From a virus, in UHGV virus genome UHGV-0314755: DNA of 10,374 bases. The stretch is one strand, 5' to 3'. Below, one piece after another: positions 2,171 to 8,364 of the stretch. Numbering within the stretch: position 1 is the first letter of the stretch; every line of letters starts with the position of its first letter. The notes under the pieces were generated by a model, which made no database searches, was not told the origin of the DNA, and saw only the letters and a program-made list of their open reading frames with translations. Both the position numbers and the translations under genes were made by a program.

Positions 2171-5100
2171 TGCCGATATATGAACAGAATCCTAAAGAGT
2201 TGCTTGGCGAGGATATTCAGCAAATAGCAGCACCTGATGACAGTAATTTCTATATGGAAACACCTTCTTTGCTTTCTGCTGTGAACCCATTTACCAGTGA
2301 TCAACGCGTTCAAAGGTCTAGACAAGCAGCATTTCGTATAGATAACACGCTGGGTAGCTTTATTGCCAGTGCTCCTTTCAGTCAGTTTGACAGGGTTGAA
2401 GGATATAACCCATTTGATAACGATGCAGCAGATATTAAAGGCTATGAAGATTTTGCAGATTCGTTTATCAACTCCGGTTCGCATGAAGAAACAATGGCAA
2501 TTAAACATCGAATCGATAAGCAAAGAACAGATAGAGAATATCTATCTGAAATGGGTGGTGCTGGTACTATTTCAAGCTTAGCAATGGGAATGATAGACCC
2601 GGTTAATGTGGCTGCAATGTTCATCCCTGTAGGGGCGGTAGCGCGTGGAGGAAGTATTGCTGAGACGGCAGGGCGTTTTGCCCTAGCGAATGCTGCTGGT
2701 GGGGGAGTATCAGAAGCCGCATTACAGGCCACTCAGGAAGCTCGCTCACCGATGGAGAGCGTATCGAACGTTGTTGTTGATGCTCTCGTTGGTGGGATCC
2801 TTGGTGCTGGTGCACAGCTACTTGCTGGACCTAGCGCGCGCGAGGCAGTGGTTAACTCAGTAGGTAATCATTTGCGAGGTATGGATTCTCCTCAAAGCAT
2901 TGGTGCAGCTCAGGTTTTCAATACCACACTCGATCAGGAACAGCTCGCTGGACTTGGACTTGCTAACAAAACGTTGAGTGTCACTCCTGCTGGCCGCTTG
3001 GCTCAATCACCATCTCTTGTCTCCCGTCAGATTAACCAGCAGCTTGCCGAAAATAACTATTTCTTCGCCAAAAATGATGAGGGGTTGGCTACGTTTACGG
3101 CAGTCGAGACTAAGATTAAGCAATACGACGCCATGCTTTATAAGCAGATGGAAGCCACTCGTGATGCTTACCAGCAGTACAGCAAATCTGTTAGCGCCCG
3201 CGGCGTGAAGAGGATGAGCTTTATTGATTTCAATGAAGCTGTTGGCATGGCTATGCGCCGTGGTGATCAGAGTGATATTCCTGAGGTTTCACAAGCAGCC
3301 GCCAGAATCCGCCCCATTTTCGAGACCACAAAAGCCCGTATGCAGGAACTGGGGATCCTTCCTGAGGATATCGATGTCGTGACGGCGAAAAGTTATCTTC
3401 CCCGCATTTATAAGTTCGATAAGATACTTTCCGACCGCACTGAATTCAGAGGGCGAATTGCCAACTGGATACAAGGGATTAGTGCCAAAGGTGCTGACAA
3501 AGCAGGTCAGCGAATTGAAAGGATAAATTCATTGCTAAAAACTGCAGAGGAATCGGCACCGCGCGCTGATGCTCTCGCTAGTGAAATCGCTGAAGCGGAG
3601 AAATGGTCTGGTAAAAAAATTCTACTTATGGAAGAACTGGATAAACGAAATAAGCTTATATCTCAGGAGACTGACACACAGGCGCGTCTTACAAGAATAG
3701 AAAAAGAGTTGGCCGAGACTTCATCAGAAAAACTTCAGGCAAGAATGATGAAAGAAAGCTCTGACCTTAAAACACGCCTTGATGATATAGCGCAGGCAAA
3801 GAGTGAGCTTCCTGTCTATCAGCGCCATATGGAGTTGCTGGATAATCCACGGAAATATCGTTCTGAGCTTCGCCGACTGCAAAAACGGGCAAATTCAACC
3901 ACAAGGCTGAATGCAAGCCGCGAACGAGCACTGAAGCAGATGGAGCCTCTATCCCGAGAGGAAGCAGAGGACGCTGCTGACGAGATCGTGAATAAAATAA
4001 TAGGCGCACCTTCCGGGCTTGTACCAGCCGATATTATCCCAGAGAGACTCGTTGGTCGGGCTGGTTTCACTAAAAGCAGAACGCTGCTTATTCCTGATGA
4101 GCGTATAGAAGATTTTCTTGAATCAGATGTTAACTACATCATGGAAAGTTATCTCCGGCAGGTGGCACCAGAAATTGAGCTGACTGCGCAGTTTGGCCGT
4201 AAAGATATGGGGGAGCAAATCCGTCAGGTTAGTGAGGAATATACCCGGCTAATAAAAGAGGCTAAAACACCTAAACGACGTGCAGTTCTTGAGAAGCAAC
4301 GGGAGGCTGATATTAGGGATATTACGGCTATGCGTGATCGACTGCTTGGTACTTACGGTGCACCTCAAGATCCACGCAGTTTCTTTGTTCGTGCCGGGCG
4401 AGTTGCTAGGAATATTAACTTCCTCCGTTTGCTTGGTGGAATGACTGTCTCCGCTGCAACTGATCTGATGCGACCGATGATGCAGCATGGCCTGAGAAAA
4501 TCTCTCGGACCAATGGTAAGCATGCTTAAAAATATGGACTCAGTGAAAATTGCAACCAGGGATTTGCGAGAAATGGCCGTTGGGCTTGATTATGTCCTGT
4601 CTACGCGTACAAAGGCTATAGCGGATCTTACTGACCCCTATAGCCGGAGAAGCGCCGCTGAGCGAGGTCTGAACTGGATGACGCAGAAATTCGGTAACTG
4701 GACGCTGATGAATCAGTGGAACAGCGCACTTAAATCATGGTCCGGGATGATAGTGCAGTCGAGGATACTTGACGCGGCTCGCCAAGTTTCTGCTGGTGGC
4801 ACGCTCTCCAAAAGTGAAATGCGGAAGATGGCACAGGTCGGCATCAATGAAGATGTTCTGCGCCGAATCGGGGAGCAATTCGGGAAGCACGGAGAGGATA
4901 TGGACGGGCTGTTAACCGGGCATAGTCATCTGTGGGATGACCGTTTCGCTAGAGAGATTTTCCAGTCTGCAGTGCTGAAAGATGTAGACTCAGTGATTGT
5001 AACGCCTGGCGTAGGTGATACACCGCTGTTTTTTAGTAAAGAAGGCTGGAAGATGATCACGCAGTTCAAAACGTTTATCTTCGCACAGCATAACAGGGTG

Positions 5101-6566: not shown

Positions 6567-7199
6567 TTAATGCAGTTTATCTTTGCTTATAACCAGTAGT
6601 CTGTGGGTATGCACATCTTTATCACTGCCCCAACAGAAATCAGCCCACTGGCTATAGAAATCATCCCATGATGTCATGAAGCTAAGAGGTCTATCTTCTT
6701 CAGAGCCATCTGAAACGTATACATTATATCCCGGGGTGTTTATAGCCCAAGAAATCATTCTTTCCCAGAATCTTCTCCCATCGATTGTTTGTTGCTCATC
6801 AGATACAACGATCGCATATTGCTCTAGGAAGAACTGAAAAAAAATCTGAGGCAAACCATGAACAGCACGGTCATGAATAACATTAGGCGTACGCCATACC
6901 ATGATCTGCGTACATGTTCTTTTGGCTTCGACGATATCTTCCCGAAAGATTAACTTAACCGCATACACCGTTTCTGGAGTATCGCTGGTAGTAATCATTC
7001 TGTAATGATCGCCATTACAAGATTTTACAAGGCGATAACCATAAGGTGTTGTGAATCCCGGAAGAACGAAATCAACCACACCTTTCGCTAAGTAGCTTTC
7101 GGTGTGACTAGTGTTCTTCTCAGACATGTTCAGTTTTCTATCGAAATCTGCTTCTGGGATAATGTATGGCATCGCTTTTCTTGTTGTATTTGTTTTCAT
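6567..7199 (-). CDS. Hypothetical protein, 210 aa (orphan cargo gene, Trp/aromatic-rich C-terminus)
   Basis: Strong SD GGGAGGA 5 nt upstream of ATG 7199 (minus strand). Clean ORF ending at a good terminator. No TM segment or signal peptide. Operator copy 1 (TTACC-N5-GGTAA) lies 60 bp upstream, overlapping a TAATAT -10-like hexamer. No family recognised; an R-x5-H motif (RTPNVIH) is noted but is too short to interpret. Confidence 0.7.
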   Translation of the reverse strand: MKTNTTRKAMPYIIPEADFDRKLNMSEKNTSHTESYLAKGVVDFVLPGFTTPYGYRLVKSCNGDHYRMITTSDTPETVYAVKLIFREDIVEAKRTCTQIMVWRTPNVIHDRAVHGLPQIFFQFFLEQYAIVVSDEQQTIDGRRFWERMISWAINTPGYNVYVSDGSEEDRPLSFMTSWDDFYSQWADFCWGSDKDVHTHRLLVISKDKLH

Positions 7200-7258: not shown

Positions 7259-7273
7259 TTACCCGTAAGGTAA
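7259..7273. promoter_or_regulatory. Operator copy 1: palindrome TTACC-cgtaa-GGTAA upstream of the 210-aa gene
   Basis: Exact TTACC(N5)GGTAA. It overlaps a candidate minus-strand -10 (TAATAT, 7278-7273), with a weak -35-like TTGGCG 18 bp further upstream (7302-7297). It is one of three copies in the window, all in non-coding regions upstream of or between minus-strand genes. Confidence 0.5.
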
Positions 7274-7338: not shown

Positions 7339-8049
7339 TCAGAAGAACCCTGCCTTGTCGTTGATGTACTCCGCGTGCGTCTGGATATCACGCAGGCATT
7401 TGCTCACACCGACGATGTAGCAGAACATGGTGGTCAGCTCCGCCGCCGCGCCCGATACGTCGTGCCCGTCTTCCTGTAACTGGTTCAGCAGATTCATCAG
7501 CAGTGAGTTTTCCGTCAGGCCGAGAACACCAGACGGAGAATGAATCAGGCTGCGGTAGCCGGGCTTCAGTGGGGCGCTGTAGGTTTTGTTCTCTATCTTC
7601 ATTGCCTGCATCACTGCTGATGCTGTGGCGTTGGCTACCTGGTCGGCAACCATCTTTATGCGTTCTTCCTGCGGGAGCGAGTTTTTAATGTAACTTCCTG
7701 TGCGGCGGATCTGAGGAAGAACCTCACCTGTAACCCATTTACGAAAGCGGTAGGGGATAGTGCCTGGTGTTACTGCATCGCGGCAGCGGAGGATCAGTGT
7801 GTAGAGGCCTGACTCGGAGATGATGTTGATCTCTTTTACTCGGCTGTCAAAAATTGCACGATGTTCATGCCCTATGTTGAACATAGACCTTTCATCATCA
7901 TCCAGTTTTTCAAGTGATTGGGTGACGTTTTGGATACGCAGCGCACTACAAACGTCTTGGGCTACAAACCATGGTTGGCCATCGATAATGATGGAACGGA
8001 TAGGGTTAACAGATTCAAATTTGAAGATGGCAGTTTGAGCATTAGCCAT
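7339..8049 (-). CDS. ant: Phage antirepressor, 236 aa: Bro-N-type N-terminal domain plus Ant-type C-terminal domain
   Basis: N-terminus MANAQTAIFKFESVNPIRSIIIDGQPWFVAQDVCSALRI matches the Bro-N / P22-antirepressor N-terminal signature (F.F....IR....DG.PWFVA.DVC..L). Preferred start is ATG 8049, with SD GGAGA and an 8-nt spacer; the ORF track's extension to 8064 uses a GTG with no SD. The C-terminal ~65 aa are about 45% identical to the 85-aa protein encoded at 8365-8622. Confidence 0.85.
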   Translation of the reverse strand: MANAQTAIFKFESVNPIRSIIIDGQPWFVAQDVCSALRIQNVTQSLEKLDDDERSMFNIGHEHRAIFDSRVKEINIISESGLYTLILRCRDAVTPGTIPYRFRKWVTGEVLPQIRRTGSYIKNSLPQEERIKMVADQVANATASAVMQAMKIENKTYSAPLKPGYRSLIHSPSGVLGLTENSLLMNLLNQLQEDGHDVSGAAAELTTMFCYIVGVSKCLRDIQTHAEYINDKAGFF

Positions 8050-8060
8050 GGTGGTTATCT

Positions 8061-8145
8061 CCACTTAGTGATTTTAATCACCACCGCAACGCCAATTACT
8101 GGTGGTGAACTGGACAAGGTTGGCGTACCGGCCTAAGTGGTACCG
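8061..8145 (-). promoter_or_regulatory. Candidate promoter/operator region of the antirepressor gene
   Basis: Minus-strand -10-like TAAAAT (8076-8071), about 20 nt upstream of the ant start region. An 8-bp inverted repeat, TCACCACC (8078-8085) / GGTGGTGA (8101-8108), sits over the -35 region. The 8-mer CCACTTAG occurs at 8061-8068 and 8234-8241, and inverted (CTAAGTGG) at 8133-8140. GTACCGGC is directly repeated at 8125-8132 and 8140-8147. Promoter assignment is tentative. Confidence 0.35.
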
Positions 8146-8205
8146 GCGTCCTTTCGGACCCCTGCCCAGCCCACCATAATTCGGATATAGCTGTGCTTAA
8201 CGCAT

Positions 8206-8228
8206 AAAAAAACCACGTCTGGCGTGGT
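8206..8228 (-). terminator. Rho-independent terminator on the minus strand, between the small Ant-like gene and the antirepressor gene
   Basis: Minus strand reads ACCACG-CCAGA-CGTGGT followed by TTTTTTT (plus-strand A7 at 8206-8212). It lies downstream of two further hairpins (8247-8262 and 8262-8283). Confidence 0.55.
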
Positions 8229-8302
8229 ATGCGCCACTTAGTAACTCGGGACGCCAATCCCGGCACTGGATTTTGCCAGTGCCCGATTACTATGGCACAA
8301 GA

Positions 8303-8346
8303 GGAGTGCAATGTAAATTTACCGCAAAGGTAAATATAAGCACTCC
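8303..8346. promoter_or_regulatory. Operator copy 2: TTACC-gcaaa-GGTAA (8319-8333) embedded in a longer imperfect palindrome
   Basis: Exact TTACC(N5)GGTAA core, flanked by the inverted 7-mers GGAGTGC (8303-8309) and GCACTCC (8340-8346). It lies 19 bp downstream of the small Ant-like gene's stop and about 270 bp upstream of the ant start. Confidence 0.5.
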
Positions 8347-8364
8347 ATTTGGTAATTGCAAACC

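Follow-up and report, generated by a model that had tools for sequence, protein, structure and literature searches.

A 77-nt element on the minus strand of UHGV virus genome UHGV-0314755 (10,374 nt; this whole stretch is called the window below) is, judged by homology, a copy of the small RNA (sRNA) known as IsrK or c4-a1b1, a family that is already known and was unannotated here. The element occupies positions 8282-8206, between two antirepressor-like genes, within a region of about 140 nt for which an earlier note, written from the sequence alone, had proposed a structured RNA with a terminator. In our reading, to which we assign a probability of about 0.72, the element belongs to a control cassette of the 'immI' type of phage P1, in which the antisense RNA C4 would block translation of the antirepressor Ant and the terminated sRNA would titrate C4. 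On the minus strand the cassette is ordered as operator-like palindrome, promoter-like site, the sRNA itself (hairpin 1, hairpin 2 with site a1, site b1 and terminator), C4 with sites b' and a', site a2, site b2 on the Shine-Dalgarno sequence, and the antirepressor gene ant. This module accounts for the long interval separating the two antirepressor-like genes.

The IsrK-type RNA and its C4 partner

When the whole window was scanned against Rfam, the isrK model (RF01394) matched positions 8282-8206 over its entire length (model positions 1-77 of 77) with 67.2 bits against a threshold of 50 (E = 5e-13), and the c4-a1b1 model (RF03163) matched 8295-8243 with 44.3 bits, slightly below its threshold of 46.7. 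Since the two matches overlap on the two 5' hairpins, both models describe one element. The minimum free energy (MFE) and centroid folds of the 77-nt RNA agree on two 5' hairpins followed by a rho-independent terminator. Its folding energy (-29.7 kcal/mol, z = -2.87, with 4 of 200 dinucleotide shuffles equal or better) is by itself only modestly beyond chance, so the case for this RNA rests on homology and covariation.

Read from its 5' end, the RNA begins with hairpin 1 (8282-8263), in which GCACUGG and CCAGUGC flank CAAAAU, and continues with hairpin 2 (8262-8247; CGGGA/UCCCG, or CGGG...CCCG, also found as inverted repeat I4), which presents site a1, UUGGCGU, at 8257-8251. The linker from hairpin 2 to the terminator holds the single-stranded site b1, CUAAGUGG (8241-8234), and the RNA ends in an intrinsic terminator identified by a terminator scan, ACCACG-CCAGA-CGUGGU followed by U7 (8228-8206). 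The hairpins GCACUGG/CCAGUGC and CGGGA/UCCCG and the terminator with U7 are thus present on the minus strand where the earlier note had located them, although it had reversed their order: in the 5' to 3' direction the GGCACTGG hairpin precedes the CGGGA/UCCCG hairpin. The comparison across related phages that the note had suggested supported the fold of hairpin 1, with compensatory changes on both sides of six of the seven hairpin 1 pairs among 42 relatives and 89% of cells paired, against 29-49% with a slid partner. For the terminator, the MAFFT alignment put the stems out of register and RNAalifold made no call; when each sequence was scored on its own, 78 of the 85 unique related elements had a stem directly before the T-run, and the stem sequences were diverse. 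The terminator and its U-tail are the only Hfq-relevant feature visible in the sequence of the 77-nt RNA. In one related locus (L062, 2463-2716) an insertion of about 37 nt separates the sRNA terminator from C4, indicating that this spacer is not strictly constrained in length.

The key partner of this RNA, absent from the earlier note, is the C4 antisense RNA gene at 8181-8098 (minus strand; Rfam RF01695, 66 bits against a threshold of 45), together with its targets at the ant ribosome-binding site. C4 folds into a long closing stem around two hairpins, at -43.6 kcal/mol (z = -5.0, with none of 200 shuffles as good). Site b', CCACUUAG (8140-8133), lies in the loop of C4 hairpin 2, and site a', ACGCCAA (8126-8120), lies in the single-stranded stretch 3' of that hairpin. 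Directly 3' of C4, the ant leader carries site a2, UUGGCGU (8095-8089; part of inverted repeat I3), and then, in a feature spanning 8068-8059, site b2, CUAAGUGG (8068-8061), which overlaps the ant Shine-Dalgarno sequence GGAG (8062-8059). Site a' is exactly complementary to both a1 and a2, and b' likewise to both b1 and b2. A search for 7- and 8-mers of C4 with complements in both flanks returned only b' (8 nt) and a' (7 nt), and in dinucleotide-shuffled flanks any 7-mer complementary to both occurred in 6 of 5000 trials and two separate 6-mer sites in 10 of 5000. The same sites were recovered independently by a repeat finder, as direct repeat D1 (b1/b2) and inverted repeats I3 and I4.

Upstream of the RNA is a promoter-like site of the sigma-70 type (8317-8289, minus strand), with a -35 element TTTACA at 8317-8312, a 17-nt spacer, TG at 8297-8296 and a -10 element CATAGT at 8294-8289; a consensus scan of the minus strand reports the extended -10 motif TGcCATAGT at 8297-8289. 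The predicted start at about 8282 coincides with the first position of the isrK model match. Of 97 related loci, 94 have a -10-like hexamer 3-11 nt before hairpin 1 (29% in a position control), and the position of the candidate promoter agrees with the annotated P1 promoter P1c4/P51b and with the isrK start of the Salmonella prophage Gifsy-1. The independent sRNA of about 100 nt starting near the operator that the earlier note had entertained is therefore best seen as this 77-nt IsrK-family RNA.

The putative operator in question is the palindrome ATTTACC-N5-GGTAAAT at 8317-8335 ('operator copy 2'), with its core TTACC-N5-GGTAA at 8319-8333, and it does sit, as had been noticed, within a larger imperfect palindrome with arms at 8298-8309 and 8340-8351. 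It abuts the sRNA promoter and overlaps its -35 element, and it also overlaps the -10 element of a second promoter-like site upstream (TTGCAA 8361..TATATT 8333). The window has three copies of the core pattern where 0.17 would be expected, and in ZX5, EC.W1-9 and Kp4865-1 the half-sites of the operator are conserved and the spacer is variable. The three copies suggest that one DNA-binding protein controls three promoters in the region. The third exact copy, TTACCCGTAAGGTAA (7259-7273), sits in the gap between ant and the following 210-amino-acid (aa) open reading frame (ORF; 6567-7199, minus strand) that matches phrog_1349, of unknown function.

The regulated gene, ant, runs from an ATG at 8049 to 7339 on the minus strand and encodes a 236-aa Bro-N protein (Pfam Bro-N, 3e-19; PHROG anti-repressor Ant, 6e-56). 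Its product is taken to be an antirepressor from this annotation and from a homologue: in ZX5, overexpression of the gene at the ant position lowered lysogeny and reduced the prophage titre about 1000-fold (PMC9782041). In one related locus (L056), the downstream ORF encodes an AntA-type antirepressor that shares a C-terminal stretch of about 80 aa with the Bro-N Ant of the window (compared with 7339-7800), which points to domain shuffling among antirepressors behind one RNA cassette.

Covariation and specificity among related loci

Related loci were collected using the conserved C4 ends as search pattern, which retrieved 120 viral contigs; combined with phage records, these amounted to about 100 unique loci. 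The segments a' and b' are, in almost every genuine C4 locus, the only two in C4 that complement both the upstream and the downstream flank. Their sequences are diverse, with 40 b' variants, 23 a' variants and 58 (b', a') combinations. Matches of at least 6 nt at all four sites were seen in 60 of 101 cognate sets compared to 1 of 1333 non-cognate ones; the automatic parser of C4 hairpin 2 took a shifted stem in the window and in L048, so that their matches are under-counted in this tally.

Covariation at fixed columns was scored on a MAFFT alignment of 60 loci. The pair a1:a' is 92% paired, with compensatory changes in six of seven pairs and a covariation score of 0.665, against 0.16 when shuffled and at most 0.17 when slid. 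The pair a':a2 is 83.5% paired, with a score of 0.46 against 0.12 in shuffles. Aligned a1/a'/a2 triplets change together, as in UUGGCGU/ACGCCAA/UUGGCGU, UUGGAAC/GUUCCAA/UUGGAAC and UUUGCAC/GUGCAAA/UUUGCAC. The b loops vary in length from 8 to 12 nt, and the evidence for the b sites comes from the k-mer analysis. The closest relatives, ZX5, EC.W1-9 and Kp4865-1, differ from the window precisely at the pairing sites and in a coordinated manner, with flanks that are 91-95% identical, and phiV10 has the a site of the window together with a b site of CUAAAAGG. By analogy with P1 and P7, coordinated differences at the sites within conserved flanks would be the pattern expected of RNA-based heteroimmunity.

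In the relatives b2 lies about 8-16 nt before a start codon, and among 64 loci with a pairable b2 and an ORF, an ORF of at least 100 aa follows directly in 50 and a small ORF in 14. The gene types downstream of the cassette include Bro-N, Rha, ORF6N, AntA, 'Derepression' and Icd-like genes. The upstream gene varies as well, being ninE in VT2-Sakai, antQ in Gifsy-1 and simA in P1. On these arrangements the cassette is a portable control unit for antirepressor-type genes and does not depend on the gene upstream.

Modules of IsrK, C4 and an ORF also occur in tandem (L046, 9650-11215, and also L030, L031, L101 and L127), in up to three copies with a spacing of 656 nt, and each copy has its own a/b specificity. 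Where they were scored (L046 and L030), the ORFs after the tandem modules are mostly Rha-like and about 120 aa long.

Proposed control of ant and competing explanations

The cassette follows the layout of the immI unit of P1 and P7 (Citron & Schuster 1990; RF01695, RF03163), which has the element order Oc4, P2c4/P1c4, a1, b1, c4, a2, b2. The C4 fold is the same (b' in the loop of a hairpin, a' unpaired); the a site precedes the b site in both targets, b2 falls on the ribosome-binding site, and a palindromic operator lies at the promoter (Op51/P51 ... icd, ant1/2 in the P1 immI unit). P1 also has a hairpin and a T-run between b1 and c4. The specificity, however, differs (a = UUUGACA and b = UGUUAGUG in P1), the operator sequence and the presumed repressor of the window are unrelated to C1, and the window prophage is integrated whereas that of P1 is a plasmid. 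In contrast to P1, the window lacks icd between b2 and ant, and the ant ATG follows b2 directly, so that the icd coupling of P1 cannot apply and ant would be targeted directly. Full repression of ant in P1 requires C4 (PMC8198154).

The steps of the proposed mechanism that produce repression are drawn from P1. Transcripts reading through the terminator would yield C4, processed from a precursor (by RNase P in P1). By pairing of its two exposed sites, a' to a2 and b' to b2 in the ant leader, C4 would cover the ribosome-binding site, Ant would not be translated and lysogeny would be kept. In P1, RNase P reportedly processes C4, and repression of translation is reported to be followed by Rho-dependent polarity (Hartmann et al. 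1995; Biere et al. 1992). Transcripts that stop at the terminator would be the 77-nt RNA, which carries perfect copies of both target sites and would mimic the target by binding C4 at a' and b', whether C4 is free or inside the read-through RNA. We infer this decoy step from Gifsy-1 together with the exact match of a1 and b1 to the target sites. The ant ribosome-binding site would then be freed, Ant would be made and the prophage repressor would be antagonised. The output would be set by the activity of the promoter, probably operator-controlled, and by the fraction of terminated versus read-through transcripts.

A second input may come from the upstream gene, an 85-aa ORF (8622-8365, minus strand) preceded by a perfect LexA box, TACTGTATAAACATACAGT (8662-8644), the whole feature spanning 8662-8365. 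The ORF is 42% identical over 74 aa to Ant residues 155-228 and has the appearance of a stand-alone Ant C-terminal domain under SOS control. A terminator scan of the minus strand from 8365 to 8228 found none besides the sRNA terminator; transcripts from the LexA promoter should therefore end at the sRNA terminator and carry a1 and b1 as 3' untranslated region (UTR). From this layout, SOS transcripts would add RNA bearing a1 and b1, and also some read-through ant mRNA.

The closest experimental system is IsrK of Gifsy-1 (RF01394; Hershko-Shalev et al. 2016, PMC4825925). It shares with the window a three-hairpin 77-nt RNA with a terminator, a promoter directly upstream, the order isrK, C4-like RNA (STnc1160), antirepressor gene, the presence of all three families (isrK, C4 and c4-a1b1), and identical sites a1 (UUGGCGU) and a' (ACGCCAA). 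STnc1160, an approximately 80-nt processed RNA that depends on the isrK promoter (PMC4825925), corresponds to C4 (Gifsy-1, L131 34076-34316, minus strand). The Gifsy-1 frame 'orf45' runs from an AUG in the 5' end of C4 (AUUAUGG) through C4, a2 and b2 to an AUGA overlap with the antirepressor gene anrP, a total of 45 codons. The window differs in having a b site of CUAAGUGG instead of the UCACCG type, and on its site sequences its specificity is a hybrid of the Gifsy-1 a site with a different b site. It also differs in its antirepressor (Bro-N in the window, ORF6N-like in Gifsy-1), in the absence of isrJ downstream, in its upstream gene (the LexA-controlled paralogue of the Ant C terminus in place of antQ) and in belonging to an epsilon15-like podovirus, Gifsy-1 being lambdoid. 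Finally, the window lacks orf45: the ORF from the AUG inside C4 (8177) ends after 14 codons, with its stop in the b' loop, 84 nt before the ant AUG. Coupling through orf45 therefore cannot operate in the window, where the ant Shine-Dalgarno sequence would be targeted directly, and since the reading frame is not conserved the orf45 mechanism cannot be general.

Several observations weigh against C4 titration by the terminated sRNA. The published model for Gifsy-1 is a different one, in which IsrK opens a fold at the orf45 start codon and translation is coupled into anrP (PMC4825925). Constitutive expression of the orf45/STnc1160 region enhanced IsrK toxicity instead of protecting (PMC4825925), which fits poorly with C4 as a simple titratable repressor. 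Mutations of a1 in cis raise basal translation in Gifsy-1 (PMC4825925), so a1:a' has a role in cis as well, which a simple decoy alone leaves unexplained. In the MFE fold of the window RNA, a1 lies partly within the stem of hairpin 2. In the P1 record, a1 and b1 are annotated only as 'putative' targets within the c4-icd-ant mRNA. Shared ancestry can inflate covariation, for which the slid-partner and non-cognate controls are only a partial remedy, and the sRNA start site, the termination efficiency and the processing of C4 in the window prophage are all inferred.

Some of these points could be accommodated if a1 and b1 acted only in cis, within the precursor, either in folding or processing of C4 or in forming an inactive mRNA such as 'structure A' of Gifsy-1, with the short RNA as a by-product. 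Besides the cis effect on basal anrP translation and the status of the P1 sites, native gels place an a1:a' helix inside the 217-nt Gifsy-1 precursor (PMC4825925). We nevertheless consider this explanation unlikely. In Gifsy-1, translation of anrP increases about 140-fold (114- to 171-fold) when IsrK is provided in trans, and G28A or G31A abolishes this activity, with C162U and C159U as the compensating changes (PMC4825925). In our mapping of the published numbering, G28 and G31 fall in a1 (U26-U32) and C159 and C162 in a' (A158-A164), so the a1:a' pairing is experimentally established in a homologue with identical sites. The short form of isrK is also stable and Hfq-associated according to the Rfam family description, and the retention of a terminator right after b1 in 78 of 85 elements argues that release of the short RNA has been selected for.

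A simpler explanation, building on the insulator of the earlier note, is that the region is the 3' UTR and terminator of the LexA-controlled 85-aa gene and only shields ant from SOS transcription. Part of this stands, as SOS transcripts should also end here at the first minus-strand terminator after that gene, and the phiV10 record annotates just a 'putative rho-independent terminator' at the element. As a full account it is very improbable: the element has its own conserved promoter-like site, it is found together with C4 behind the unrelated genes of VT2-Sakai, Gifsy-1 and P1, and its two sites co-vary with C4 and the ant leader, which a simple terminator would not need. Since the element travels with C4 and ant whatever the upstream gene, it is not primarily the 3' end of that gene. 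A host-directed Hfq sRNA, pairing mainly with host mRNAs in trans and only incidentally linked to ant, would agree with the Hfq binding that Rfam describes for isrK and with a terminator and U-tail typical of Hfq sRNAs. Its two variable single-stranded segments, however, track the neighboring C4 and ant leader, and 58 specificity combinations are incompatible with a conserved host target, leaving this role, for which no search for host targets was made, similarly improbable.

A coding function finds little room. Over the element runs a 100-aa TTG ORF (8398-8096, minus strand) that spans the promoter, the terminator and C4; it has no Pfam match, and its weak PHROG match covers only the C4 part. 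The earlier statement that no ORF accounts for the region was essentially right, this mechanical ORF being the only one. In favor of a protein encoded by it or by a short ORF within C4 are that weak match, the coding sequence (CDS) annotated in ZX5, and the translation of orf45 detected by the Gifsy-1 authors. However, these authors report nucleotide but not amino-acid conservation (PMC4825925), the indels that distinguish the relatives have lengths not divisible by three, and the ORF from the AUG at 8177 is the 14-codon frame described above. We rejected the protein-coding reading on the missing Pfam match for the 100-aa ORF and the unconserved frame, and regard it as scarcely credible.

Control of ant by an antisense RNA of the P22 sar type, the analogy drawn in the earlier note, was also rejected, on strand, geometry and the lack of any Rfam sar match at E <= 1. 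Both systems involve RNA pairing near the ant ribosome-binding site, but sar is transcribed from the opposite strand and overlaps ant, whereas the RNAs of the window are all on the ant strand and use short separate sites, and the sRNA lies at least 157 nt upstream of the ATG without overlapping ant. P4 CI, with seqA, seqB and seqC, resembles the cassette in that processing of the leader of the controlled operon releases an sRNA with complementary sites on both sides. It differs in causing transcription termination and controlling replication genes, the target in the window being the ribosome-binding site of an antirepressor gene. It is P4 seqA/CI, not P1 c4, with which the Gifsy-1 authors compare IsrK, describing seqA as a structural homologue (PMC4825925).

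Source prophage, annotation and biological meaning

The window derives from an epsilon15-like (Uetakevirus) Escherichia coli prophage. Identity to the window is 97.7% for phage HEMP4 and 91-95% for phiV10, TL-2011b and ZX5. Related DNA was found in 535 of 5426 complete E. coli genomes. In the RefSeq/GenBank records of related prophages neither the sRNA nor C4 is annotated as an RNA gene; the terminator mentioned above is the sole annotation at the element in phiV10. In ZX5 (L003 673-786, corresponding to window 8099-8212) a GenBank CDS for a 37-aa 'ash family protein' is laid over the C4 RNA gene, and a Pfam search of this CDS gave no match. The translated C4 region of the window is weakly matched (1e-6) by phrog_20442, of unknown function. 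Some protein families have probably been built from translated C4 RNA genes.

Two other RNA identities were set aside. ARAGORN found no transfer RNA (tRNA) or transfer-messenger RNA (tmRNA) in the whole window, and such an identity was rejected despite the likeness of the C4 closing stem to an acceptor stem. An Rfam NsiR4 match at 4264-4323 (minus strand), inside a 1129-aa tail gene, scored 20 bits against a threshold of 40 (E = 0.77) and was treated as almost certainly due to chance.

Both RNA families and the principle of their action have been known since 1990, 2008-2010 and 2016, and the discovery is accordingly modest. What is added is a survey of specificities, the exposure of missing or wrong annotation, and the explicit identification of IsrK as the a1/b1 element found in the C4 system. 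A literature search, which left most subscription-journal papers outside it, found none linking IsrK with P1 c4, nor any equating orf45/STnc1160 and the a1/a' mutations with a P1-type C4 system; a review from 2025 discusses the two, IsrK and c4, in neighboring paragraphs and draws no connection.

The cassette would decide whether the antirepressor is made, and hence whether the prophage is induced. The module also predicts which prophages share RNA specificity, and the window shares one site with Gifsy-1. A broader proposal, which we advance tentatively and at somewhat less than even odds, is that IsrK-type RNAs in general are anti-antisense target mimics for C4, with a two-site address code and, in the window phage, delivery by a LexA-controlled mRNA. 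If this is true, the literatures on IsrK and on the a1/b1 sites of P1 c4 describe one system, and the two sites form a combinatorial RNA address code with at least 40 b and at least 23 a variants in 58 combinations. Such a code would set the cross-talk in antirepressor control, or the mutual immunity, among prophages. A mimic carried as the 3' UTR of a LexA-controlled mRNA would, on the same condition, make Ant translation responsive to DNA damage through an RNA-level link.

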